Shown here in pieces: positions 3,845 to 58,187 of a stretch of DNA of 64,000 nt. The notes under the pieces are model-generated. The model searched no databases and was not told the DNA's origin. It worked only from the letters and a program-made list of their open reading frames with translations. This stretch comes from an uncultured archaeon (lineage in GTDB: Archaea > Iainarchaeota > Iainarchaeia > Iainarchaeales > JAAZKV01). The stretch's first letter is position 1; every line of letters begins with the position of its first letter. Position numbers and translations under genes: made by a program. The DNA is taken from assembly GCA_964549775.1 (NCBI GenBank), contig CAZJVN010000001.1:21028-85027 (forward strand), given 5' to 3'.

Positions 3845-4678
3845 ATGGAAACTAAAAAAAATAAAACAGCTATTGTTTACATGGTTGCTGGACTTTCTTC
3901 AAGGTTTGGTGGAAAGATAAAACAATTTGCAAAAGTTGGGAAAAATAGTGAAACCCTAATTGAACTTTCAATGCAGCAAGCAATAAATGCTGGATTTAAT
4001 AAAATAATTTTTATTGTAGGAGATAAAACAGAAAAACCATTTGTGGAAAAATTTGGCAACAATTATTTTAACACCCCAATTTATTATGCAAAACAAATTT
4101 TTGATGAAAAAGTTCGAGAAAGGCCTTGGGGAACTCTTGATGCATTAATCTCTGCAAAAAAACTAATTAATTGTCCTTTTGCTATTTGTAATGGAGATGA
4201 TTTGTACGGAGAAAACGCGCTTAGAACAGTGTGTGATTTTTTAATAAAAAATGAAAACAAAAAAGTAGCTTTAACTATTGGTTATAAATTAAAAAACGCA
4301 ATTCCAAAAAAAGGATCCACAAATAGAGGAATTTACAAATTAGATAAAAATAATTTTGTAAAAGATATTAATGAAATAATTGGAATTGAATTTGATAAAT
4401 TAAAACAATTAAATTTAAACGAAAACGATTTGTGCAGCATGAATCTTTTTGGTTTGAATGAAAATATATTTTCTTTACTTGAAGAAAAATTAATTCTTTT
4501 CAAAAATAATCACAAAAATGAAAAAAGAATTGAATGCTATTTGCCTGTTGAATTAAGTAATTTAATTAAAGAAAAAAAAATTCTAATGAAATTAGCTCCA
4601 ACAAACGATGTTTGGTTAGGAGTAACTAACCCTGAAGATGAAGAAACAATCAAAAAGATTATAAAAGAAAATAAATAA
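3845..4678 (+). CDS. Sugar-phosphate nucleotidyltransferase family protein
   Basis: N-terminal glycine-rich loop MVAGLSSRFGG (equivalent of the GGxGxRL loop) and a GTLDA motif (cf. GTA[HD]A) typical of NDP-sugar pyrophosphorylases. Confidence 0.65.
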   Translation: METKKNKTAIVYMVAGLSSRFGGKIKQFAKVGKNSETLIELSMQQAINAGFNKIIFIVGDKTEKPFVEKFGNNYFNTPIYYAKQIFDEKVRERPWGTLDALISAKKLINCPFAICNGDDLYGENALRTVCDFLIKNENKKVALTIGYKLKNAIPKKGSTNRGIYKLDKNNFVKDINEIIGIEFDKLKQLNLNENDLCSMNLFGLNENIFSLLEEKLILFKNNHKNEKRIECYLPVELSNLIKEKKILMKLAPTNDVWLGVTNPEDEETIKKIIKENK

Positions 4679-4735
4679 CTTTACTTGGCAAGCTACTCCA
4701 GATTCCTTTTTAATCTTCATTAATCAATTTTTTAT

Positions 4736-6850
4736 ATGACTCAAGAAATAAGCGCATTAGTCCTTAAATCAAATAATTTTGAAAAATTTAATCCAATGCA
4801 AGAAAAGTGTTTGAATAAGTTAAATAAAAGTCTTGTTGTTTCAGCACCAACTGCGAGCGGAAAAACTATTGTTGCAGAACTTTTTGTTCTTCAAAGTGTT
4901 TTGATTGAAAAAAAGAAAGTAATTTACACTTGTCCTTTGCGTGCGCTTGCAAGTGAACATTATAAGGATTTTAAAAGAAAATATCCTCAAATTAAATTTT
5001 CTCTTTCTACTGGTGATCTTGATTCTAGTAGTTCTTATTTAAAAAAATTTGATGTAATAATGACTACTTATGAAAAACTTGCAAGTTTACTAAGGCATAA
5101 ATCAGAGTGGTTAAGTGAAGTTGGTTGTATTATTATTGATGAACTTCACGAACTTGATTCTTCGCGTGGACCAGTTCTTGAAATTGCTTTAACTCAATTA
5201 AGAAACAAAAACCCTTCACTAAAAATATTGGGTTTAAGTGCAACTATTCCTAATGCAAAAGAGTTGAGTGAATGGTTAAGTGCAGATTTAGTTGAAAGCG
5301 ATTTTCGTCCAACAAAATTAAAAGAAGGAGTATTTTTTGAAAACGAAATTACTTACCAAAATTTAGAAGTAGAAAATTTTAAAGATGTTGAAGATTTAAT
5401 TAATAATTTAATTAAAGAAAATAAACAAGCGCTTGTTTTTTTAAATTCAAGAAAACGTGCTGAAGGTTTTGCAAAAAAAATAAACAAAATTGTGGCCAAC
5501 AGTTTGAGCGAAAGAGAAATCCAAAAATTAAAAGAAGTTTCAAAAAGAGCATTAAATGTTTTAGAGTCCCCTACTGAACAATGTTCCTCTCTTTCAGAGT
5601 GTATAATGCAAGGGAGTGCCTTTCATCATGCAGGATTATTAAACGAGCAAAGAGAACTTGTTGAAGATAATTTTCGACTTGGACAAATTAAAGTTTTGTG
5701 TTCCACAACAACTCTCTCTGCAGGAATTAATTTGCCAGCAGATTTAGTAATTATTCCAAGTGTTTATCGTTTTGAAAAATTTTCAATGGAATTAATTCCA
5801 GTGAGGGAATATAAACAATGTGCAGGTAGAAGTGGTAGACCAAAATTTTCTAGCGAGGGAAAGAGTGTTATTTTAGCTAGTTCAGAACAACAAAAAGAAC
5901 TCTTAATTGAAAAATACATTAATGGGAGTATTGAAAAAATTGAATCTAAACTTTCAAATATCCCAATTTTACGTACCCACATTTTGGCACTAATCGCAAC
6001 TAATGAAATTTATGATATTAAAAGTATTGAATCCTTTTTTGAAAAAACGCTTTACGCAAAACAGTTTGGGGATTTTTCAGAGTTACTTGAAAAAATAGTT
6101 GAGATCATTTCAGATTTAGAAAAATTTGGTTTTGTTGAAAACAAAAATAACTTTTTTGTTTGTACCCCCTTAGGTAAAAGAGTGAGTGATTTATTTTTAG
6201 ATCCTGAAAGTGCATTTGATTTAATTACTGCATTAAGAAGCAAAAAAACTTTTACAAATATTTCTTACTTATATGCTTGGGTTAATTGTTTTGAATTTTT
6301 TCCACTTTTAAGTGTTCCAAAAAATATTAAACCAATTATTTATGAAGAATTTAGTGAAAGAATGGTGGAACTTCCTTTTAGTGAAGAAAAACTAATTTTA
6401 GAAGAAAATTCGGTTAACAAATATTTTTCTGCATTAATGCTTGAATATTGGATCAAAGAAAAAAAAGAGCAAGAATTATTCAAAGAGTATAATTTAGCTC
6501 CAGGAGTGCTTTTTGGAAAAACTAGAATTATTGAATGGTTATCTTATAGTACAATTGAATTATCAAAAGTTTTAGGTATTGAAAAACACATAATTGTAAG
6601 TAATAAATTGAGTAAGCGAATAAAGTATGGAGTTAAAGAAGAATTATTACAATTAGTTGAATTAAAAGGAGTGGGACGGGTACGTGCGAGGAAATTATTT
6701 AATGCAGGAATAAAAAAACCCACTGAAATCAGAAATAATTTAGCTAAAGTAGAGTCATTGTTAGGAAAAACCGTTTCAGATTCTTTAATTAAACAATTAA
6801 CTTTAAAAAAATCAATTAAAGCTGAATCAACTTTTCAAAAAAGCTTATAA
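4736..6850 (+). CDS. hel308: Ski2-like DNA helicase Hel308/Hjm
   Basis: 704 aa. Walker A APTASGKT, DEAH-type IIDELH, SAT motif, QCAGRSGR motif VI. C-terminal winged-helix and HhH region typical of archaeal Hel308. Confidence 0.85.
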   Translation: MTQEISALVLKSNNFEKFNPMQEKCLNKLNKSLVVSAPTASGKTIVAELFVLQSVLIEKKKVIYTCPLRALASEHYKDFKRKYPQIKFSLSTGDLDSSSSYLKKFDVIMTTYEKLASLLRHKSEWLSEVGCIIIDELHELDSSRGPVLEIALTQLRNKNPSLKILGLSATIPNAKELSEWLSADLVESDFRPTKLKEGVFFENEITYQNLEVENFKDVEDLINNLIKENKQALVFLNSRKRAEGFAKKINKIVANSLSEREIQKLKEVSKRALNVLESPTEQCSSLSECIMQGSAFHHAGLLNEQRELVEDNFRLGQIKVLCSTTTLSAGINLPADLVIIPSVYRFEKFSMELIPVREYKQCAGRSGRPKFSSEGKSVILASSEQQKELLIEKYINGSIEKIESKLSNIPILRTHILALIATNEIYDIKSIESFFEKTLYAKQFGDFSELLEKIVEIISDLEKFGFVENKNNFFVCTPLGKRVSDLFLDPESAFDLITALRSKKTFTNISYLYAWVNCFEFFPLLSVPKNIKPIIYEEFSERMVELPFSEEKLILEENSVNKYFSALMLEYWIKEKKEQELFKEYNLAPGVLFGKTRIIEWLSYSTIELSKVLGIEKHIIVSNKLSKRIKYGVKEELLQLVELKGVGRVRARKLFNAGIKKPTEIRNNLAKVESLLGKTVSDSLIKQLTLKKSIKAESTFQKSL

Positions 6851-45138: not shown

Positions 45139-46062
45139 TTAAAACAAAGTGTCGAATATTTTTTTACCGTTTGATTCTTCTAAGTATTTCCATCTTTCGT
45201 CAACATATTTTTGTATTTTTTCAACAAGATCGGGAGTCAAATGTTTGAATCTTCCTTGCATCATCAAGTATTGTTCAACTGGTTTTTTTTCTGCTGGAGT
45301 GTAATTTAATTTCATTACCCCATTTTCAATTTCATATAATGGATAAACAGTTGTGTCTTGTGCTATTCTTGATAAATCAATTACAATTGAGGAATCAATT
45401 TTCCATCCAGGAATGCATGGAACAAATACTGAAATAAATGAGGGCCCATCAGTGTTGAGTGCTTTTTGTACTTTGTTTTTTAAATCAAATAAATTTGATA
45501 CGCTTGCAGTTGCAACATATTTTGCTCCGTGTGCTGCAATAATATAAGGTAAAGGTTTTTTTGGTTGAGTTTTTCCATGAATTACACTTCCATTTGGGCT
45601 TGTTGTTGTTGCAGCGTAAGGAAAAGTTGCTCCGCTTCTTTGTATTCCTGTATTTTGGTAAGCTTCATTGTCTGTTGCTATGTAAAGTATTTTGTGTCCT
45701 CGTTCTACAGCTCCGCTTATTGCTCCAAAGCCAATATCAAACATTGCTCCATCTCCACCAATTGCGATTACATTTGTTTTTGTATTTCCTTTTGATAAAA
45801 GCGATGCTTTTACTCCACTTGCAACAGCTGCTGCATTTTCAAATGCGCAGTGCACCCAAGGTACTTCCCATGCTGATTCTGGATAAGGGGTTGAAACTAC
45901 TTCCATACACCCAGTAGCCATTACAATCATTGTGTCTGCCCCTGCAGCTTTTAGTATGTGTCTTATTGCTAGTGCTTCTCCACATCCAGCACAAGCTCTG
46001 TGTCCGCTTGCAAAATATTCTTTTTCGTCTAAACCCAAAATTACCATAATCATCAATTCCAT
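45139..46062 (-). CDS. porB: Pyruvate:ferredoxin oxidoreductase beta subunit (TPP-binding)
   Basis: CAGCGEA.., TPP motif IAIGGDGAMFDIGFGAISGAVERGHKILYIATDNEAYQNTG. Confidence 0.85.
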   Translation of the reverse strand: MELMIMVILGLDEKEYFASGHRACAGCGEALAIRHILKAAGADTMIVMATGCMEVVSTPYPESAWEVPWVHCAFENAAAVASGVKASLLSKGNTKTNVIAIGGDGAMFDIGFGAISGAVERGHKILYIATDNEAYQNTGIQRSGATFPYAATTTSPNGSVIHGKTQPKKPLPYIIAAHGAKYVATASVSNLFDLKNKVQKALNTDGPSFISVFVPCIPGWKIDSSIVIDLSRIAQDTTVYPLYEIENGVMKLNYTPAEKKPVEQYLMMQGRFKHLTPDLVEKIQKYVDERWKYLEESNGKKIFDTLF

Positions 46063-46079
46063 TTTTGTTTTTTAAAAAA

Positions 46080-47234
46080 TTATTTTAACCAAACTCCTTC
46101 TTGTCCTTTTTCAATTATTTCAAATGCTTTTTTTATTCTTGTTCGATCAATATCTCTCCCACCAAGTCCCGCAATAAATCCAGTCACTTTTACTTTTTCT
46201 TCTTTTAGTGCAGCCTTGATGTCAGTACATAATGGCCCTTCATATCCAATTGAAACGTGTCTATCTATTACCCCTAAATTTTTTAATTTTTTTGTTGCAG
46301 AAATTATTTCTTCTTTTGGAAAGGGTCTCATTGATTTTATTCTAATTATTCCTGCTTTTTTTCCAGATTTTTGTAATTCTTCAAGAACCATTCTTGCAGT
46401 TCCAGTTACTCCACCAACTGTAACAAGAGCATATTCTGCATCTTTCATTTCTATTAACTCAATTAATCCGCCACCATATTCTCTTCCAAATTCTTTTGCA
46501 AATTCTTCATGAACTTTTTGTATTTCCTCTTTAGCTTCACTCATTGCATTTTGTTCTATTTCTTTAAATTCAAAGTAAGTGTTTGGTTGAGCAAATGCTC
46601 CAAAAGTTTTTGGGTTTTTTACATCTAAAAAATGTTCAGGGGTGTATTCTGGCAAAAATGAATCTACTTTTTCGCTAGTTTCAATTATCACTGGCTCGTA
46701 CACGTGGGTTAGAGAAAATCCATCCATGCAAACCATTACTGGGAGTAATACATTTTTTTTCTCTGCAATTTTGTAAGCCATTATTGTTGTGTCAAATGCT
46801 TCTTGTACATTTTCGCAGTAAAGTTGTATCCATCCTTGGTCTTTTTCACTCATTGTGTCAGAGTGATCGTTCCAAATATTTAGTGGGCCTGATAGTGCTC
46901 TATTTGCTACTACCATTACTGCAGGCATTCTTGATGCTGAAACAATTGGAATTATTTCATGCATTAGTGCAAGACCTTGTGAGGCTGTTGCAGTAAATGC
47001 TCTTGATCCTGCCGCGTACGCCCCATAAAGTGCACTAATTGCAGAGTGTTCACTTTCGACATGAATTAATTGAGCGTCAATTTCTCCATTAGCAATATAT
47101 TCTGATAATTTTTCTGGAATTAATGTACTTGGAGTGATTGGGTACATTGGTAAAACTTTTGGTCTACAAAGTTTTACTGCATTAGCAACTGCTTCTGAAC
47201 CAGACATAACTTTTGTTTCACTCATAAAAATCAC
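46080..47234 (-). CDS. porA: Pyruvate:ferredoxin oxidoreductase alpha subunit
   Basis: 384 aa. N-terminal ..MSGSEAVANAVKLCRPKV..YPITPST.. typical of PorA/KorA. Confidence 0.85.
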   Translation of the reverse strand: MIFMSETKVMSGSEAVANAVKLCRPKVLPMYPITPSTLIPEKLSEYIANGEIDAQLIHVESEHSAISALYGAYAAGSRAFTATASQGLALMHEIIPIVSASRMPAVMVVANRALSGPLNIWNDHSDTMSEKDQGWIQLYCENVQEAFDTTIMAYKIAEKKNVLLPVMVCMDGFSLTHVYEPVIIETSEKVDSFLPEYTPEHFLDVKNPKTFGAFAQPNTYFEFKEIEQNAMSEAKEEIQKVHEEFAKEFGREYGGGLIELIEMKDAEYALVTVGGVTGTARMVLEELQKSGKKAGIIRIKSMRPFPKEEIISATKKLKNLGVIDRHVSIGYEGPLCTDIKAALKEEKVKVTGFIAGLGGRDIDRTRIKKAFEIIEKGQEGVWLK

Positions 47235-47270
47235 TATTTTTATTTCCCCAAATTAATTTATTCAAATATT

Positions 47271-47603
47271 TTATTTTTCTTCAACCTTATATGCAATGCA
47301 TTTTACTGGGCATTCTTTTGCACAAATTAAACATCCTTTACAATATTCATAATTTACTTGAAATTTTCCGTCTTTGTCTTTATAGATTGCACCGTCAGGA
47401 CAATTTAACCAGCATTTTCCACATTTTATACATTTTGCTTGATCAATTTCTGGTTTAAATGTTCTCCAATCCCCAGTTTTGTATTTCTTTGATGAGCCTG
47501 CTTCAAGTACTGTTGCTCCAAGGTTTAGTATTATCCCTGAAGAAGTTTTCTCAACTTTTGAAACTTCTTTTTTGTTGTCCTTTTTTTCAACCATAAAATT
47601 CAC
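47271..47603 (-). CDS. porD: Pyruvate:ferredoxin oxidoreductase delta subunit (2x[4Fe-4S] ferredoxin)
   Basis: Two CxxCxxCxxxCP motifs (CIKCGKCWLNCP; CKGCLICAKECP). Confidence 0.8.
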   Translation of the reverse strand: MNFMVEKKDNKKEVSKVEKTSSGIILNLGATVLEAGSSKKYKTGDWRTFKPEIDQAKCIKCGKCWLNCPDGAIYKDKDGKFQVNYEYCKGCLICAKECPVKCIAYKVEEK

Positions 47604-47626
47604 TTTTTTTATTTACCAAAAATTAT

Positions 47627-48172
47627 TTATTTTTTTAACGAGTCTTCATAAACTTGTTTTATTGCAGACAAATTTTTTTCAAGCATTGTTCCTTTTGAAC
47701 CCATTTGTTGTTTGATTGCATTTTCTAGGGACTCTATTGTTACTTCTTTTGTTAATGCACTAAATGCTCCAAGTGCAGCAATATTTACAAAAGGTTTTCC
47801 TATTTTACTTATTGCAATTGCTGAAATATCTACACACTTTATTTTTGCTTTTGTATTTAATTTAAATTCTTCCGGTTTTTTATGAGAATTAATTATTATT
47901 AAATCACTAATATTTTCAGTTAATCCGTTTAGAAGTGTTGCATCAAGCACTATTGCATAATTTGCGTCATAAACTTGTTCTCTAAGAGTAATTTTTTTCT
48001 CATCAATTCTTGCATAACTTCTTACGGGGGCCCCAGTTCTTTCTACTCCAAAATTTGGAAAAGCTTGAGAATGTTTTTTGTCAAAGAACGCTGCTATCGC
48101 TATTATTTGTGAACTTGTAACAGCTCCTTGCCCCCCTCTTCCTAGTACTATTATTTGTTTCATTTTTTGCAT
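47627..48172 (-). CDS. porG: Pyruvate:ferredoxin oxidoreductase gamma subunit
   Basis: 181 aa. ..IVLGRGGQGAVTSSQI.. (GxGGQG) motif of POR gamma. First gene of porGDAB. Confidence 0.8.
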   Translation of the reverse strand: MQKMKQIIVLGRGGQGAVTSSQIIAIAAFFDKKHSQAFPNFGVERTGAPVRSYARIDEKKITLREQVYDANYAIVLDATLLNGLTENISDLIIINSHKKPEEFKLNTKAKIKCVDISAIAISKIGKPFVNIAALGAFSALTKEVTIESLENAIKQQMGSKGTMLEKNLSAIKQVYEDSLKK

Positions 48173-50774: not shown

Positions 50775-52049
50775 CTATAAATAATCTTTTATGTTATATT
50801 TTGGAAATTCGGTTCTTGTCATTTTTGCAACTTTGTCTAGTCTCATTGTTAAATCAAATCCTGCTTTTGCTGTTTCTCTTGTTATTTGGTCTGCACTTGC
50901 ATCAAGTGAAGATCCTTTTTGTTTTGTGAATAAATAAAAGTTTTTGTCCGCTTGGAAACGTGTAGCCATTGCCCACTCTACTTCTAAAGGGTCATAAATA
51001 TTTATGTCTTTATCCACGATGAAAAAATGTTTTCCTGATGTGTGTCCTTTCATTGCTGCATCAATTGCTTTTTTCCCATCTTCTTCATTTTGTTTATTAA
51101 TTTTTACAATCACGTGAAACCATGAGCTTCCGCCAGGATTAACACTCACGTCAATTACATCTACCCCTGCTTTTTTTACACAATCAAATACTGTTGGTTC
51201 TCTTGGCATCCCCATTAGAATTTTATGTTCAAATCCTCCTGGTAAGAGTGCGTGGTAAATATAATTTGGTCTTACATAAATTTTGTCAACTGTAAAAACT
51301 GGTTCTTGTCTCACTATATCGCTTGTTCCTGTTAAATCAACAAATGATCCTTCAGCATGTTTTTCATTTAGTGATAAATTTCCTTCCATTATTATTTCTG
51401 CGTCAGAGGGAAGTATTGCGTCAAAAGTTTTTGCTTTAATTACTTCAATCGGTTTAATTGAATTGGCAATTTCAAGTTCATTTACTCCTAAAGGTGGTGC
51501 CATTGCCGCAGCTAAAGCAGTTTCTCCTCCAATTCCAATACAATATGCTGCTCGCATTCCCCCATTATTTTTTTTCAACAACTCCATTGTATTTCTTTCA
51601 AGGATTCTAAGCGCAATTTTATTTTTTCCAATAATCATTCCTCTGTGATAACAAACATTTTGACCAACTACTGAATCTTTTACTATAATAATTCCACTTG
51701 AAATATATGCTCCCCCATCTTTTGAGGTGTGCGTTAAAATTGGTAATTTTTCTAAATCTACTTCAATTTCAGTATGATCGGTCGAATTAACTTCTTTTGG
51801 TTTTGTGGGGGCATTTAGTGCTTTAGTCATTATTGGTACAAGATCTTTTACCTCGCAACTTAAGTATTTTGCTACTTTTTCTTTTGAAGCGAAAACATTT
51901 GCAACTATTTTATTTTTTGATTCTTTTACATTTTCAAAAATTATGCTTTTGTCTCCAGCGGAGTAAATTATTCCACTCGCTTCTAAATTTTTTGAAACAG
52001 GCTTTGTTATTGTATAGTCCGCTTTTGTTACAAATTCTCTAAAACTCAT
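50775..52049 (-). CDS. UbiD-family decarboxylase, inferred trans-anhydromevalonate-5-phosphate decarboxylase
   Basis: About 425 aa UbiD fold (shorter than canonical UbiD), immediately downstream of UbiX. Context within the mevalonate operon. Confidence 0.7.
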   Translation of the reverse strand: MSFREFVTKADYTITKPVSKNLEASGIIYSAGDKSIIFENVKESKNKIVANVFASKEKVAKYLSCEVKDLVPIMTKALNAPTKPKEVNSTDHTEIEVDLEKLPILTHTSKDGGAYISSGIIIVKDSVVGQNVCYHRGMIIGKNKIALRILERNTMELLKKNNGGMRAAYCIGIGGETALAAAMAPPLGVNELEIANSIKPIEVIKAKTFDAILPSDAEIIMEGNLSLNEKHAEGSFVDLTGTSDIVRQEPVFTVDKIYVRPNYIYHALLPGGFEHKILMGMPREPTVFDCVKKAGVDVIDVSVNPGGSSWFHVIVKINKQNEEDGKKAIDAAMKGHTSGKHFFIVDKDINIYDPLEVEWAMATRFQADKNFYLFTKQKGSSLDASADQITRETAKAGFDLTMRLDKVAKMTRTEFPKYNIKDYL

Positions 52050-52071
52050 AAAAATCACCTTTAAACTAACA

Positions 52072-52629
52072 TTAAATCTTGTTCCATCTATTGAATTTGT
52101 TGTTAGAAACTCCTAATAAATCTAATGCTTTTCCAACAATAAAATCTTCAACATCTTCTATTTTTTTTGGTTTGTGATAAAACGCTGGACTCAAAGGAAA
52201 AATTATTGCGCCATATAAGGATAGTTTCCATAAATTTTCAAGTACAGGCCCACTTAGTGGAGTTTCTCTTACCCCAATTATTAATTTATTTCTTGTTTTG
52301 AGCATATTGTCTGAACATCTAGTAATTAGATTATTTGTGTGTGCGTGAAGTATTTCTGAAACTGTTTTTATTGATGCAGGAATAATTATCATTCCATCTA
52401 CTAAAAAGGAACTAGAGGATATGCTTGAGGATAAATCATCATTGGAATAATTTTTTGTTGCAAGTTTTTTTATTTGAGAAATTTTTGTTTTTGTTTCTTC
52501 TTTAATTACTTCATTAGCCCATTCGCTAATAATTAAGTGTGTCTCAATTTTTTTTTGTTTTAATTCCTTTAAAAGAGCCACTGCATAATTTGCTCCACTT
52601 GCTCCAGTTATTGCAATAATTATTTTCAT
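52072..52629 (-). CDS. ubiX: Flavin prenyltransferase UbiX (prenyl-FMN synthase)
   Basis: 185 aa. MKIIIAITGASGANYAVALLKEL.. flavoprotein N-terminus. Confidence 0.85.
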   Translation of the reverse strand: MKIIIAITGASGANYAVALLKELKQKKIETHLIISEWANEVIKEETKTKISQIKKLATKNYSNDDLSSSISSSSFLVDGMIIIPASIKTVSEILHAHTNNLITRCSDNMLKTRNKLIIGVRETPLSGPVLENLWKLSLYGAIIFPLSPAFYHKPKKIEDVEDFIVGKALDLLGVSNNKFNRWNKI

Positions 52630-52639
52630 AAAAATAATT

Positions 52640-53584
52640 TTAATTTATTTTTACTTTTATTGAATTGTAATTTTTTGCAGAGTACATTGTCATTAGTTTA
52701 TCTTGTTGTGCTTCATTGTAACACAATATTAGAACATTTCCGCCCATTCCTGCCCCAGTTATTTTTGCTCCTCGTGCATTTTCATAACTAGCAATTTTTA
52801 TTATTTCATCTATTTCTTTTGTTGAAATATTTAGTTCTTTTAATAATAAGTGATTTTGATTCATTAGTTTTCCAATCTCTTCTACTCCGCCGAATTGAAC
52901 TTCTTTTTTTGCCTTAGTTACAATACTTTTGTATTCTAAAAATAATTTTTCATATTTTTTTGGATTCTTTTCTTTGTCTTCTTTTACCATTTGAACTGCT
53001 TGTTTAGTATCATGTTTTATCCCTGTGTCAACTAATAAACATAAAAGTGCTTTTCCACATTTAAATGGACGAATTATGTTTTCTCCACCTTTCATATTTT
53101 TTTCAAACCATATTACTGTCCCATACGTTGCGCAAGAGTTATCTATCCCGCTTGGGTTTCCATGATTTATTTTTTCTGCTCTAAAAGCAGCTTCATTAAT
53201 TTTGTCTTGTTTCCACCCTAAATCAAATATTTGGTTTAATGCTCCCGCCATTGCTACTGATAGTGCTGCTGAGTAACCTAACCCTCCTCCAGCAGGTAGA
53301 TTTGCATTAATGTTTATTTTTAGTCCTTCGAGTTTTAAAAATTCTTCTCCTTCAAGTATCGCTTTTAGTATTTTTGATTTTATGTGATCAGGTTGTTCTT
53401 TTAGTGAAACTTTTTCTTTGAATATTTTATCATCAAATATCACATCATTAGAATCTTTTAGTTGTTGTATTTCTACTTCTACATATTTATCTATCCCTGC
53501 GGCAATCCCGGGTAAACCATAAACTACAAAGTGTTCTCCAAAAAGAATTACTTTTCCATACCCTTTTGCTTTTGAGCTAGCCAT
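52640..53584 (-). CDS. mvk: Mevalonate kinase (GHMP kinase)
   Basis: ..KVILFGEHFVVYG.. and GHMP motif PAGGGLGYSAA. Confidence 0.85.
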   Translation of the reverse strand: MASSKAKGYGKVILFGEHFVVYGLPGIAAGIDKYVEVEIQQLKDSNDVIFDDKIFKEKVSLKEQPDHIKSKILKAILEGEEFLKLEGLKININANLPAGGGLGYSAALSVAMAGALNQIFDLGWKQDKINEAAFRAEKINHGNPSGIDNSCATYGTVIWFEKNMKGGENIIRPFKCGKALLCLLVDTGIKHDTKQAVQMVKEDKEKNPKKYEKLFLEYKSIVTKAKKEVQFGGVEEIGKLMNQNHLLLKELNISTKEIDEIIKIASYENARGAKITGAGMGGNVLILCYNEAQQDKLMTMYSAKNYNSIKVKIN

Positions 53585-53689: not shown

Positions 53690-54094
53690 TTAGAATTTTG
53701 GAATGAATTTTGTTCCATAGTGAATTATTCCTTTTTGTCCACTTTTATAGAATTTTCTAAATACTGCTTCAACTTCTTGTCCAATTTTTAGTTCTTCATA
53801 TTTGCAATCAATTACTTGCCCAGTTATTTTTGCTCCTTCTTTTAATTCAATTATTGCTACACAGTATGGAGCCATTTGGGAGAATACTTCTGGACCAGAA
53901 TGAACTTGAGTGTAAGAAATTATTTTTCCGCTTCCAGAAAAATCCATTTCTGCATAATCTAAATTTCCGCAAGTACACATTCCTTTTTTTTCAAAATATG
54001 TTGCCCCGCATTTTGTGCATTTATACCCGCGTAATTTGTATCGGTCGTTGTAATTTCGCCATCTTAGTATTGGACTTTCTCGGAACATATTCAT
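53690..54094 (-). CDS. DUF35 OB-fold/Zn-ribbon protein (scaffold of archaeal thiolase/HMGCS complex)
   Basis: 134 aa. Zn ribbon CTKCGATYFEKKGMCTCGN and C-terminal OB fold. Confidence 0.75.
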   Translation of the reverse strand: MNMFRESPILRWRNYNDRYKLRGYKCTKCGATYFEKKGMCTCGNLDYAEMDFSGSGKIISYTQVHSGPEVFSQMAPYCVAIIELKEGAKITGQVIDCKYEELKIGQEVEAVFRKFYKSGQKGIIHYGTKFIPKF

Positions 54095-54131: not shown

Positions 54132-54335
54132 CTAGTATTTTCTTTTATATTCACTTCTTTTTACAAGTGGTTCTTCAGCAGCTTTTGCTTCTCTCCACTT
54201 TTTTGCTCGTAAATATAATGGTTCGTTATCTTCTTGTATTTCTTTTTCTTCAAGAGTTTTTCCCAGTCTAACCACTGGTTCTTCTTCTGTTTGTTTTGCT
54301 TTGAATGCTGACTTAACTCTATCTAGTATTCCCAT
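54132..54335 (-). CDS. Small basic hypothetical protein (67 aa) between thiolase and DUF35 genes
   Basis: MGILDRVKSAFKAKQTEEEPVVRLGK..LYLRAKKWREAKAAEEPLVKRSEYKRKY. Fills most of a 282-nt gap inside an otherwise tightly packed operon. Confidence 0.4.
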   Translation of the reverse strand: MGILDRVKSAFKAKQTEEEPVVRLGKTLEEKEIQEDNEPLYLRAKKWREAKAAEEPLVKRSEYKRKY

Positions 54336-54376
54336 AAAATCACCCTTTATGAAAATTTTGTCTTCATAAAAATAAT

Positions 54377-55531
54377 TTATTTCATTCTCTTAAACACGTG
54401 TATGCAAGCTGTTGCTCCGCTTCCACCAACGTTGTGTGTTACTCCTATTTTTGCATCTTTTACTTGTCTTTTTCCGGCTTCTCCTCGAAGTTGTGTTGTT
54501 GCTTCAATTGCTTGTTTAATTCCTGTTGCTCCTACTGGATGTCCGCATGCTTTTAATCCACCAGAAGTATTTACTGGGTGACTAGCATCAAAGTAAGTTT
54601 GTTTTTCTTTGTAAAGTTTTCTTGCTTCTCCGTGTTTTGCAAGGGCTAGTGCTTCTACTGCGTATATTTCTGCTATTGAAAAACAATCATGCACTTCTGC
54701 AAATGAAATATCTTTTGGAGTAATTTTTGCTTGAGCATAAGCTGATTCTGCTGCTATTCTTCCTGCTTTTATTTCTAAGAGTGATTCTCTTCTTGCAAGT
54801 GAGAGTGTGTCTGTTGCAAGAGCTGAAGCTGTAATGTAAACTTCGCTTCCCATTTTTTTTGCCACAGTTTCGTTTGCAATAATTATTGTTGCTGCTCCGT
54901 CTGTTATTGGTGAACAATCCATTAGTGTTAGTGGATCTGCTACCATTGTAGAATTTATTACATCGTCAAGGGTTAATTCGTTTTTGAATTGTGAGTAATC
55001 GTTTCTTGCTCCGTGGAAGTGATTTTTTACTGACACTTCTGCTAGTTCTTCTCTAGTTAAACCAAATTTGTGCATGTAAGCTTTTGCTAGTAATGCGTAA
55101 AGTCCTGGGAAAGTTAATCCATTGAATCCTTCAAGTTCTTCGTCTCCTGCTCCCATTAGTGCAGTTGTTACTTGCTCAGTAGAAACATCTGTCATTTTTT
55201 CTACTCCATTAACCATTACAATATTTGCTGCTCCGCTTTCAATTGCTTGCACTCCTTGTCTTAGTGCGATTGATCCAGAAGCACATGCTCCTTCTACTCT
55301 TATTGAGGGTTTGTCTAAATTTAGATTTTCAGTAGCCATTGCTCCAACGTGAAGTTGTCCTGAGAGTGAATCTCCACACATGTTTCCAGTAAACATTGAA
55401 TCGATTTGTTCTGGAACGATTTTTGCATCATTTAGTGCACGAAGTTGTGAGTCAAGTAATAATTCTCTAAGCCCTCTATCCCAAATTTCACCGAACTTGG
55501 TGATACCAATTCCTAAAACACCGACTTTCAT
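54377..55531 (-). CDS. Acetyl-CoA C-acetyltransferase (archaeal-type thiolase)
   Basis: MKVGVLGIGITKFGE.. start, catalytic Cys context (EGACASGS), C-terminal His/Cys thiolase motifs. Confidence 0.85.
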   Translation of the reverse strand: MKVGVLGIGITKFGEIWDRGLRELLLDSQLRALNDAKIVPEQIDSMFTGNMCGDSLSGQLHVGAMATENLNLDKPSIRVEGACASGSIALRQGVQAIESGAANIVMVNGVEKMTDVSTEQVTTALMGAGDEELEGFNGLTFPGLYALLAKAYMHKFGLTREELAEVSVKNHFHGARNDYSQFKNELTLDDVINSTMVADPLTLMDCSPITDGAATIIIANETVAKKMGSEVYITASALATDTLSLARRESLLEIKAGRIAAESAYAQAKITPKDISFAEVHDCFSIAEIYAVEALALAKHGEARKLYKEKQTYFDASHPVNTSGGLKACGHPVGATGIKQAIEATTQLRGEAGKRQVKDAKIGVTHNVGGSGATACIHVFKRMK

Positions 55532-55806
55532 TTTTTTTCACCTAATGAAATAAAAATATATGAAATTACTGGCATAATTAATAACATTATGTAATAGTTA
55601 ACTACTTGATTGATTGACGCACAATAATACTCACAAGAAGCAAATAATATTAACCAAGAATAATTTTGTTCACAAACAAATCCTGCAGGGACAACTCCAC
55701 AATATGTGAATAAGGATAATAAAACAAATAAAATTATCTCAACTATAACAATCCCCACAAAGACGAATGCTTTATTTTTTGTAATATTAAAATTCATAAT
55801 CATCAA
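55528..55806 (-). CDS. Small 3-TM membrane protein (92 aa) with Cys pairs, between HMGCS and thiolase
   Basis: Fills the 280-nt HMGCS-thiolase gap exactly, 4-nt ATGA overlap with thiolase start. Hydrophobic helices plus YCGVVPAGFVCEQ..SCEYYCAS. A chance 92-codon ORF is unlikely in DNA this AT-rich. Confidence 0.45.
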   Translation of the reverse strand: MMIMNFNITKNKAFVFVGIVIVEIILFVLLSLFTYCGVVPAGFVCEQNYSWLILFASCEYYCASINQVVNYYIMLLIMPVISYIFISLGEKK

Positions 55807-55810
55807 ATCC

Positions 55811-56860
55811 TTAATGTATTAACTCCATGTGTGATTCGTATTCTGGGTAGGTTAAGTATTCTTTTCTTTTTACATAGTCCTCTGTTGTTTTTGCTTTTTT
55901 TTGCGCAGCAGTGATTTTATCTGTTGCAGTAAAAATAAATGAATCGCTTCCAGATCCTGATCCATAAGATGTCACTAAAATTTTGTCGCCTGGTTTTGCA
56001 ATATCAAGTACACAAGTTAAACCAAGTATTGAACTTCCAGAGTAAGTGTTTCCTATTTTTGTTACAATTAATCCTGGATTAATTTGTTCTTTTGTTACCC
56101 CAAACATTTTTGCTACTCTAAGTGGAAATTTTCCGTTCGGCATGTGGAACACTACATATTTAAAATCAGTAATTTTCATTTTTGTTTTTTCTAAGATATT
56201 TTTTGTTGCATTTACTACGTGTTTAAAATATGCGGGTTCCCCAGTGAATCTCCCTGCATGACTTGGATATGGTTCTAGTGCCCTTCTCCAAAAATCTGGA
56301 GTATCTGATGTAAATGAAAGTGTTGCATCAAGTGTTGCAACTGCATCTTTGTTTTCTCCAATTATAAATGCTGCTCCGCCAGCGGCTGCAGAGTATTCTA
56401 GCGCGTTTCCTGGTTCGGCTTGACTAGTATCTGAACCAATACTTAAACCGTATTTTATCATTTTTGAATCAACTAGCCCTGCGTTTATTTGAATTGTTGC
56501 ACTTCCTGCTTTGCATGCAAACTGAGTGTCAAGAGCCGTGTAATTATTTCCAATATCAAGTGCTTCTCCAACAATTGAAGAAGTTGGTTTTACTGCATAA
56601 GGAGGAGATTCACTCCCAACATACACTGCTCCAATTTCTTTTCTGTTAATATTTGCTCTTAGTAATGCATTTCTTGCTGCAGCCACTGCAATAGTTGCTG
56701 TGTCCTCGTCTTTTCCTGGGACACTCTTTTCAACTAACCCAAGTCCGTTTTTTATTGATTCGGGTGTAGTATGTTGTACTTTTGCTATTTCTTCTACAGT
56801 TATTCTGTATTTTGGAATGTATGCTCCCCAACCAATTATTCCTGCCATGATATTATTCAC
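55811..56860 (-). CDS. Hydroxymethylglutaryl-CoA synthase (archaeal HMGCS)
   Basis: ..GIIGWGAYIPKYRI.., catalytic Cys context (TQFACKAGS), C-terminal GSGSGSD. Confidence 0.85.
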   Translation of the reverse strand: MNNIMAGIIGWGAYIPKYRITVEEIAKVQHTTPESIKNGLGLVEKSVPGKDEDTATIAVAAARNALLRANINRKEIGAVYVGSESPPYAVKPTSSIVGEALDIGNNYTALDTQFACKAGSATIQINAGLVDSKMIKYGLSIGSDTSQAEPGNALEYSAAAGGAAFIIGENKDAVATLDATLSFTSDTPDFWRRALEPYPSHAGRFTGEPAYFKHVVNATKNILEKTKMKITDFKYVVFHMPNGKFPLRVAKMFGVTKEQINPGLIVTKIGNTYSGSSILGLTCVLDIAKPGDKILVTSYGSGSGSDSFIFTATDKITAAQKKAKTTEDYVKRKEYLTYPEYESHMELIH

Positions 56861-56888: not shown

Positions 56889-58187
56889 CTATTTTTTTCT
56901 CAATTTTTTTATTATCTCTTCTGCTTTAGCTTGATTTATTTCTTTTGAAGTGATCATTTCTTCTGCAACTTTGTCAATTTCATTTTCGCTTGCTCCAGCT
57001 CCTGCAGCTAATGCTCGAGCGTGTAACTTCATGTGTCCTTGTTGAATTCCTACTGTTGCAAGTGCTCTTAGTGCGGCAAAATTTTGTGCTAACCCCACGC
57101 ATGCTGCTATGCTTGTTAGTTCTTTTGAATTTTTTACTCCAAGAATTTTTAGTGATAATTGCGCCATGGGGTTTAGTTTTGCTGTTCCTCCAATTGTTGC
57201 AAGAACAATTGGTAATTCTATCTCTCCAACCAAGTCTCCTTTTTTATTTTTATAATATTTGGTTAGTGGAAGATATTTCCCTTTTTCTTTATAAGCCGCA
57301 AAAGAATGTACTCCTGCTTCAACCCCTCTAAAATCATTTCCAGTAGCAATTGTTAGTGCGTCAATTCCATTCATTATTCCTTTGTTATGAGTTGCTGCTC
57401 TAAATGGAGAACTTATTGCAAATTCGTAAGCGTCTAAAATATTTTCAATTATTTGTTCTCCACTTAAACCAAATTGACCGCTTCCTTCTAGTTTTTCTTT
57501 TGTCCAAATTGTACTAGCTCTTGCTTTTCTATGAATTGCAAGATTTGAAATAATTCTAAGAAGTGCTTTTCCTCCAGAAATTTTTTCAACTAAAGGAGTT
57601 ATTTTTTCTGTCATTGTATTTATTGCATTTGCCCCCATTGCATCACGAACATCCACTAATAATTGTAATTCTATCATCTCTCCGCGTGTTGTTTTTAGTA
57701 CCTCTCCTTTTAGGTCACGCGGCCCTCCTCCAAATTTTACTAAAACTGAATCTACTTTTTCTGCTTCTGCCAAAATTTCTTTTTTTGAATCAAGAATTTT
57801 CTTTAATGCACTTTTTGCATTCTTCATTTTTACTAATTGTATTTGTCCTATCATTACTGGTTCATCACTGGATGTGGAAAATCCACTAGATAATTTTGCG
57901 GCGTTACTTGCAGCCGCGACCACACTTGGTTCTTCAAGAACAAATGGAACCAAATATTCTTTTCCATCAATAACAAAATTTGTTGCAATTCCATAAGGTA
58001 GAGAAAATGTACCCACTACATTTTCTATCATTTTGTCTGCGTTAGATAAAGGTAAATTACTTTCTTTAAGTAAAGTGTTTTTTTCTTCAATAGTTAATGC
58101 ATATTCTTTTGATAGAATTTCTTGTCTTTCTTTTATTGTCTTTTTGTAAAATCCATCAAAATTTTTTGAATTCAAATTAATCACCAA
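56889..58187 (-). CDS. hmgA: HMG-CoA reductase (class I, NADPH-dependent)
   Basis: 432 aa. ..DAMGANAINTM.., ..GTIGG.., C-terminal GHMKLHARA. Confidence 0.9.
   Translation of the reverse strand: MVINLNSKNFDGFYKKTIKERQEILSKEYALTIEEKNTLLKESNLPLSNADKMIENVVGTFSLPYGIATNFVIDGKEYLVPFVLEEPSVVAAASNAAKLSSGFSTSSDEPVMIGQIQLVKMKNAKSALKKILDSKKEILAEAEKVDSVLVKFGGGPRDLKGEVLKTTRGEMIELQLLVDVRDAMGANAINTMTEKITPLVEKISGGKALLRIISNLAIHRKARASTIWTKEKLEGSGQFGLSGEQIIENILDAYEFAISSPFRAATHNKGIMNGIDALTIATGNDFRGVEAGVHSFAAYKEKGKYLPLTKYYKNKKGDLVGEIELPIVLATIGGTAKLNPMAQLSLKILGVKNSKELTSIAACVGLAQNFAALRALATVGIQQGHMKLHARALAAGAGASENEIDKVAEEMITSKEINQAKAEEIIKKLRKK

Follow-up and report, generated by a model that had tools for sequence, protein, structure and literature searches.

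Introduction

According to PMC12960953, which cites Voegeli et al. (2018; PMC5879682), the described complexes of acetoacetyl-coenzyme A (CoA) thiolase, 3-hydroxy-3-methylglutaryl-CoA (HMG-CoA) synthase (HMGCS) and a DUF35 protein consist of these three proteins, and their physical association with a common CoA-binding site is known from other species only. We analyzed the corresponding operon in a stretch of 64,000 nucleotides (64 kb; hereafter the window) from contig CAZJVN010000001.1 of an uncultured archaeon (assembly GCA_964549775.1). As for the archaeal thiolase/HMGCS/DUF35 complex, genes for the three components are neighbors in the window. Unlike the tripartite complex, the window and one Iainarchaeota-like clade possess a fourth conserved small gene, here called S67, that separates the thiolase gene from the DUF35 gene. 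The HMGCS-thiolase junction also differs from described complex loci in that it carries variable extra genes, namely a small predicted membrane protein gene (TM92) in the window and a family of 165–296 aa in many relatives. Archaeal isoprenoid lipid synthesis begins with the thiolase/HMGCS/DUF35 assembly, and S67, which a whole clade retains at the center of these genes, is a candidate fourth complex component or regulator. The nearest public genomes to the window are metagenome-assembled genomes (MAGs) labelled Candidatus Iainarchaeum or "archaeon", i.e. DPANN archaea, for which it is debated whether they can synthesize lipids themselves.

S67 and TM92 are real protein-coding genes that differ in kind. 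We estimate a probability of about 0.6 that S67 is a selected accessory partner of the complex and that TM92 is a passenger and not a conserved complex component. A first-pass annotation of the window had pointed out both open reading frames (ORFs), and their positions were confirmed: the HMGCS-thiolase and thiolase-DUF35 junctions measure approximately 280 nt each, and a single ORF, oriented like the operon, fills each of them. The suggestion that both are likely real genes was borne out by protein homologues of each and, for S67, by purifying selection and codon usage. The description as unannotated was incorrect, as the NCBI source assembly already lists both among its gene calls, with 89 and 67 aa and without names. 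Of the further idea that the two proteins might be an extra subunit or a membrane tether, the part concerning S67 was not refuted, its clade-wide retention in the same slot being compatible with an accessory subunit, and the part concerning TM92 was contradicted, as TM92 is absent from the nearest relatives and its family is scattered over different contexts. In the following, WIN denotes the window locus, L plus a number a fetched locus of a relative and P plus a number a protein cluster representative.

S67 is a clade-specific gene between thiolase and DUF35

S67 encodes a highly charged, predicted helical protein of 67 aa (54132..54335, minus strand) and is located between the genes for acetoacetyl-CoA thiolase (54377..55531, minus strand; Pfam Thiolase_N and Thiolase_C_1) and the DUF35 protein, which comprises a zinc ribbon and an OB fold (53690..54094, minus strand; Pfam OB_ChsH2_C and zf-ChsH2). 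As read from the sequence, a Shine-Dalgarno motif GGGTGA (54340..54345, minus strand) lies 4 nt upstream of the S67 ATG. A word-indexed search with S67 returned three close homologues with 87–91% identity, all of them 67 aa long and all located between thiolase and DUF35. Thiolase-based scans of species-representative genomes and metagenome contigs identified 44 further loci, many of which contain an ORF of 58–80 aa with 37–72% identity to S67 in the thiolase-DUF35 slot. A profile search with an alignment of 15 S67 proteins yielded 51 clusters of 58–92 aa, all unnamed and without a Pfam domain. In every locus with readable flanks, the gene order was thiolase, S67, at times one more small ORF, and DUF35, all on the same strand. 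The same order was found for the most divergent members for which contexts were fetched (P0052, P0050, P0046, P0048 and P0043), and the slot was held even where the downstream genes were unrelated, e.g. ilvD or a glycosyltransferase gene.

The conservation check proposed for S67 thus turned out positive in 21 of 21 distinct loci of one clade, despite their differing neighborhoods. In a neighbor-joining tree of the thiolases, 19 distinct S67-bearing loci formed one clade. In the sister clade of Iainarchaeota and in the outgroups, which were Woesearchaeota-like archaea and bacterial MAGs, the thiolase stop codon abuts or overlaps the DUF35 start (gaps of –7 to +5) wherever no unrelated ORF lies between the two genes. 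The simplest history is a single gain of S67 at the base of the clade, and no loss was observed.

Comparison of the window S67 with three orthologues gave dN/dS ratios of 0.08–0.24, with values of up to 0.29 among the orthologues and dS of 0.5–0.7. For thiolase, DUF35 and mevalonate kinase (MVK) from the same genome pairs, dN/dS was 0.04–0.16. The codon-usage comparison with the flanking genes yielded an in-frame score of 0.71 for S67, compared to a gene mean of 0.49, and negative scores for the other five frames. S67 is a real small protein under purifying selection. Across 43 sequences, A44, R48, E49, P56, K59 and R60 are invariant and F11, R23 and K46 nearly so, resulting in a conserved core A44-x-K46-x-R48-E49 followed by P56-x-x-K59-R60. 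The window ORF falls within the family length range of 58–92 aa, has the N-terminal motif G-[IL]-[LF]-x-K as well as the invariant core, and matched the family hidden Markov model (HMM), which includes the window sequence, with E 1.3e-25. No S67 paralogue was found elsewhere in the 64-kb window or in the fetched loci. The S67 family is a clade-specific, uncharacterized fourth gene of the thiolase/HMGCS/DUF35 set. Between the thiolase stop codon and the ribosome-binding site of S67, the minus strand additionally contains an 8-bp inverted repeat TTTATGAA...TTCATAAA (54346–54372), which could form a hairpin.

Predicted structure and possible role of S67

AlphaFold2 modeling of S67 with the alignment predicted helices at residues 3–10, 28–36, 40–54 (with a predicted local distance difference test score, pLDDT, of approximately 90) and 60–66. 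The predicted template modeling score (pTM) was 0.38, indicating helices without a compact fold. Foldseek returned no matches of the model in the PDB, and among the PDB sequences the S67 profile found a single chance match (E 0.69). Neither S67 nor TM92 had a match at or near threshold in Pfam, NCBIfam, PHROGs or the PDB sequences, and scans of the family members and of neighboring uncharacterized ORFs with Pfam, NCBIfam and PHROGs likewise returned nothing at or near threshold. The possibility that S67 is a split-off piece of DUF35 was rejected (hhalign probability 0.4%).

The strict clade-wide placement between two complex subunits makes a function as accessory partner the likeliest role of S67, and our best guess from this synteny is that S67 assists the thiolase/HMGCS/DUF35 complex. 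In such a role, S67 might dock via helix 40–54 and the core motif onto the assembly or onto one of its subunits. The predicted helical, non-globular character would fit a peptide that folds on its partner.

The N-terminus of S67 (MG-I-L-D-K-V-K) resembles amphipathic membrane binders such as helix α0 of PspA/Vipp1 or the membrane-targeting sequence of SepF, which we treated as a lead only. Similar to those helices, the start of S67 family members, MG-[IL]-[LFI]-[DE]-[KR]-[VI]-K-x-x-F-G-K-K, is predicted to be helical (residues 3–10). Unlike PspA/Vipp1 and SepF, S67 has no sequence or fold match to those families. The hydrophobic moment of the N-terminal helix averaged 0.51 in the family and 0.53 in shuffled sequences, with none of the 43 members being significant. 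Since the moment is no higher than in shuffles, we do not rely on this resemblance.

TM92 is a predicted membrane protein with a patchy distribution

TM92 (55528..55806, minus strand) occupies the junction between the thiolase gene and the gene for archaeal-type HMGCS (55811..56860, minus strand; Pfam HMG_CoA_synt_N/C and ACP_syn_III_C), which shares 78–94% identity with HMGCS of Iainarchaeota relatives. The ORF, which was characterized through its homologues, its hydropathy and an AlphaFold2 model, comprises 92 aa when counted from the TTG at 55806. The start is likely the ATG at 55797 (89 aa, MNF...), judging from the homologues and the NCBI gene call. TM92 had been described as a cysteine-containing protein with three transmembrane segments. 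A cysteine-bearing loop is indeed present, whereas both hydropathy and AlphaFold indicate two hydrophobic helices and not three: Kyte-Doolittle values peak at residues 10–31 and 64–86 and stay below 1.0 in the stretch between them, and AlphaFold predicted helices 7–30 and 62–86 separated by a disordered loop. With a mean pLDDT of 59.5, confidence in the model was too low for a fold search. The loop between the helices carries four Cys residues and, by the positive-inside rule, would face the outside, with both Lys-bearing ends in the cytoplasm.

A word-indexed search with TM92 found only TM92 itself (89 aa, NCBI). A phmmer search against 1.8 billion representatives detected four full-length homologues (P0053, P0055, P0057 and P0058; E 9.5e-8 to 4e-4), not counting two long repetitive proteins with local matches only. 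The best of them, P0053, has 43% identity (E 9.5e-8). The homologues begin with MNF and have Cys, Pro and Tyr residues at aligned positions. The family is characterized by a length of 84–113 aa, the MNF start, two hydrophobic helices, Cys residues both in the loop and where helix 1 ends, and a P-x-x-x-Y motif in helix 2, and the window ORF has all of these traits. Two further members were found in fetched loci (L025 3241–3504 and L057 4665–4928) and match a local HMM that includes both. In pairwise shuffle tests, the similarity of the L025 ORF to TM92 was weak (z = 3.3, 14 of 2000 shuffles), and a relationship of a small ORF from L017 to TM92 was not supported. With 0.098, the codon score of TM92 was the best of the six frames and exceeded the 95th percentile of off-frame scores, although it was below the 5th percentile of real genes. 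We consider TM92 real despite this low score because full-length homologues share the conserved positions.

No second copy of TM92 was detected in the 64-kb window, and there was no match in virus, phage or plasmid collections, of which the latter two were searched by tblastn. An apparent match on a viral contig (L062) was off-frame and spurious. We also rejected TM92 as the remnant of the larger 165–296 aa junction gene (hhalign probability ≤0.4%). Comparisons of TM92 with S67 and of S67 with the 165–296 aa family by hhalign indicated no relationship either (probability ≤0.4%).

Conserved presence beside HMGCS and thiolase, as expected for a dedicated partner of the mevalonate complex, was not found for TM92. 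In the nearest relatives of the window (L002, L005, L006, L033, L009 and L034), whose thiolases are 88–90% identical, the HMGCS-thiolase junction contains no ORF and consists of the HMGCS TAA, 13 nt including AGGTGA, and the thiolase ATG, so the conservation check that had been proposed speaks against TM92 as a component of the complex. Compared to these relatives, the window has about 267 extra nt between the HMGCS stop codon and the thiolase ribosome-binding site. P0053 occupies the HMGCS-thiolase junction of L058, a genome of the sister clade without S67, and the closest relatives of L058 itself, L042 and L049, have an 11-nt junction without an ORF. In L058, the junction is laid out as in the window, with the thiolase Shine-Dalgarno motif within the final codons and a stop/start overlap. 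L025, likewise from the sister clade, carries a diverged copy in the same junction.

Other members of the TM92 family follow DUF35 (L057) or RNA polymerase subunit D (L060), lie within a group of small membrane ORFs next to a 1207-aa protein that has a membrane anchor at its C-terminus (L063), or separate the γ and δ subunit genes of a 2-oxoacid:ferredoxin oxidoreductase (POR; L059). The POR genes of L059 are 69–81% identical to those of the window, where the γ-δ-α-β operon (45139–48172) has a γ-δ gap of 23 nt. In L059, the TM92-family ORF is directly followed by a tandem repeat with a period of approximately 54 nt (~1245–1360), just before the start of the δ subunit gene.

The patchy distribution and the unrelated contexts fit a passenger that is gained and lost at operon junctions, not a conserved subunit, and TM92 is most likely such a passenger gene and not a dedicated tether. 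As a passenger, TM92 would fill the HMGCS-thiolase junction and be transcribed with the operon. Its translation may be coupled to that of thiolase because the thiolase ribosome-binding site (GGTGA, 55538..55542, minus strand, as read from the sequence) lies within the final TM92 codons (SLGEKK) and the stop and start codons overlap. The ATGA overlap, which had been taken as a sign of coupling, is present. It arises automatically and carries little information, because the thiolase gene starts with ATGAAA in nearly all relatives (ATGAAT in a few) and an ORF in the appropriate frame ends at this TGA. The recurrence of TM92 at the same site in different lineages might be due to homologous recombination between the highly conserved flanking genes. 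TM92 is a caution that translational coupling and a place in a conserved operon do not prevent a small membrane ORF from being a patchily distributed passenger.

Thymine-rich intergenic DNA as a source of new membrane ORFs is a concept from the yeast de novo gene literature. Similar to such ORFs, the TM92 coding strand is unusually T-rich compared to neighboring genes (with a reversal of the AT skew at 55500–55800), and unrelated hydrophobic ORFs occur at the same junction in relatives. TM92 was not born at this site, because diverged full-length homologues exist in other genomes and contexts.

Competing explanations

Several observations weigh against S67 being a partner of the complex and TM92 a passenger. 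The N-termini of DUF35 proteins are alike with or without S67, with no compensating change visible, and compact operons can retain their gene order even when the products do not interact physically, the link between S67 and the enzymes being one of synteny. In several lineages, a small hydrophobic ORF occupies the HMGCS-thiolase junction, where a membrane peptide could be selected for. Moreover, the sample of TM92-family contexts is small (eight places) and partly biased to mevalonate loci.

The main rival concerning S67 is a function as regulatory or nucleic-acid-binding protein, either as an RNA-binding autoregulator of the operon or as a factor coupling the translation of DUF35, which we regard as improbable, if worth keeping in mind. 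The lack of a globular fold (pTM 0.38) would be compatible with such a function, as would the high content of charged residues (31 of 67), the Lys/Arg-rich conserved C-terminal half (KKWRE...PLVKR..YKRKY) and the accumulation of other small basic ORFs in the thiolase-DUF35 gap of relatives. The overall charge is less pronounced than the description of S67 as strongly basic had implied: 17 Lys and Arg face 14 Asp and Glu, giving a mildly basic protein with a net charge of +3 and a pI of 9.2. Against nucleic acid binding, Pfam, NCBIfam, PHROGs and the PDB contained no match to a known nucleic-acid-binding family, and the strict linkage to thiolase and DUF35, and not to the 5' end of the operon, is unlike what would be expected of an operon regulator.

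It is unlikely, to a slightly greater degree, that TM92 is a selfish or addictive membrane gene of toxin- or holin-like character that spreads among operon junctions and genomes, possibly by homologous recombination. In favor of such a gene, the family occurs in several unrelated operons, and its presence at the same site is patchy among close relatives in three separate lineages. Scaffold gaps exactly at the junction in the MAGs behind L001/L016, L013 and L028 would also fit, as would the identity of 15 nt at the TM92 start (TTGATGATTATGAAT) with the thiolase start region of L042/L049. TM92 shares with class II holins and type I toxins its small size, a pair of hydrophobic helices, short charged termini and a C-terminal end rich in Lys. 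Unlike holins, it has no phage or lysis context and no PHROG, phage or plasmid match, and its neighbors are metabolic genes. With 89 aa it is larger than type I toxins (<60 aa), as are the two-helix members of its family in general (84–113 aa), and its conserved Cys-bearing loop is atypical of either group. Terminal inverted repeats and a second copy in the 64-kb window are missing, no match was present in the virus, phage and plasmid collections, and neither antitoxin nor lysis genes are located nearby.

We give similarly little credit to a broader scenario in which S67 is a fourth, lineage-specific subunit and the hydrophobic-helix genes of the junction (TM92 and the 165–296 aa family) bring the complex or the polycistronic mRNA to the membrane. 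If true, the initial reactions of archaeal lipid synthesis would exist in a form associated with the membrane.

Still less probable is a reading along the lines of the original proposal, in which both small proteins are extra subunits, with TM92 tethering the soluble thiolase/HMGCS/DUF35 complex, or the mRNA by co-translational insertion, to the membrane, where isoprenoid lipids are made. The TM92 family is present in the HMGCS-thiolase junction of WIN, L058 and L025, TM92 itself is tightly coupled to thiolase translation in its arrangement, and other hydrophobic ORFs occupy the junction in L017 (66 aa), L067 (103 aa, ending in LLEKK) and L047 (179 aa). However, the nearest relatives of WIN and, separately, those of L058 have no junction ORF in their 11–13 nt, no relationship to TM92 was detectable for the ORFs of L017 and L067, and the TM92 family also occurs in a POR operon, beside an RNA polymerase subunit gene and in an envelope-gene cluster. 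According to PMC12960953, the known complexes are tripartite and soluble.

Accidental ORFs in two non-coding spacers (leader, internal promoter or structured RNA) have next to no probability, since both ORFs are conserved at the protein level with homologues of each and with purifying selection on S67: the TM92 codon score below the 5th percentile of real genes would fit non-coding DNA, but equally long stop-free runs on the operon strand arose in only 4 of 5000 shuffles of the HMGCS-thiolase spacer and 7 of 5000 of the thiolase-DUF35 spacer, the sole Rfam match in the region was a sub-threshold CRISPR-DR hit inside the thiolase gene (21.8 bits compared to a threshold of 36 bits), and promoter- and terminator-like sites, in a scan that models bacterial signals only, did not exceed the level in shuffled sequences.

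Operon layout and variability of the junctions

The operon is of the archaeal mevalonate type and located on the minus strand in the order HMG-CoA reductase (HMGR), HMGCS, thiolase, DUF35, MVK, UbiX and UbiD, in a region with a G+C content of approximately 33%. HMGR (56889..58187, minus strand; Pfam HMG-CoA_red, E 1.7e-102) is the first mevalonate gene of the array. The adjacent HMGCS, thiolase and DUF35 proteins all match Pfam above the gathering score. The true start of DUF35 is probably the ATG at 54088 (MFRESP), the third codon of the listed ORF, which agrees with 132-aa relatives and has normal spacing from a GGTGA site. MVK (52640..53584, minus strand; Pfam GHMP kinase) is followed by genes for UbiX (52072–52629, minus strand) and a UbiD-like decarboxylase (50775–52058, minus strand), both assigned through Pfam gene calls on the near-identical relative L001. 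The gaps in the remaining array had been given as 5–50 nt. Most of them fall close to this range (4–45 nt), the exception being the 105 nt between DUF35 and MVK. In near-identical relatives, the operon continues with AcnX subunits and a gene with amino acid kinase fold, which probably encodes isopentenyl phosphate kinase, so that the mevalonate operon is complete and of archaeal type.

The contents of the HMGCS-thiolase junction vary unusually widely in this group: the junction is empty or contains a TM92-family gene, another hydrophobic ORF or a gene of the 165–296 aa family, and it behaves as a hot spot of gene insertion and loss. The hydrophobic ORFs of 66 aa (found in L017/L036), 103 aa and 179 aa show no detectable similarity and are apparently unrelated to TM92. 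Their recurrence could reflect selection or equally the tendency of T-rich spacer DNA to contain hydrophobic ORFs. The 165–296 aa family, which has no Pfam, NCBIfam or PHROG match, occupies the junction in most S67-bearing genomes and is missing from the subclade of the window. Members were located in L010 (2519–3379), L012 (2677–3441), L053 (1865–2647), L055 (1944–2780) and L057 (2266–2763) as well as in L013, L014, L028, L031, L037, L039 and L040. The family may have been gained together with S67.

Runs of N, i.e. scaffold gaps, lie exactly in this junction in three independent MAGs, namely L001/L016 (~4780–4878 of L001), L013 and L028, and may stem from assembly breaks at population variants that have or lack inserts. 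In L010 (3394–3504), L028 (3394–3504) and L039 (2394–2504), a 5' piece of the thiolase gene is duplicated. The copy, a 36-codon ORF starting with MKIGVLGIGITKFGE, lies after the junction gene and ahead of the true thiolase start and looks like a rearrangement scar. Across the TM92 start, the window has 15 nt, TTGATGATTATGAAT (55797–55811), that are identical to the thiolase start region of L042 (~486–500) and L049, where no ORF is present. They could be a scar of a deletion or insertion, or reflect a common constraint on the ribosome-binding site. In the approximately 60 nt before the thiolase ATG, L015 and L020 contain a conserved segment with two possible hairpins, TTTTGCAATAGCAAAA and CAACCGGCTGGGCGGTTG, that is absent from the window. 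The same segment can also be read as a conserved ORF of 27–28 codons that stops within the thiolase ATGA.

Small, very basic ORFs of 50–107 aa accumulate in the operon junctions of relatives. They were found in the thiolase-DUF35 gap of L015 (4838–5143), L035 (3656–3979), L017 (4899–5051), L028/L031, L053 (4239–4463) and L066 (3726–4046) and between HMGR and HMGCS in L001 (3472–3681). By eye, the gap ORFs of L015 and L035 look related to each other. The Woesearchaeota relative L021 contains a 113-aa ORF (4527–4868) in the thiolase-DUF35 gap, which we take to resemble the four-helix-bundle proteins of 23S rRNA intervening sequences. If this resemblance holds, it would be another unrelated passenger in the thiolase-DUF35 slot.

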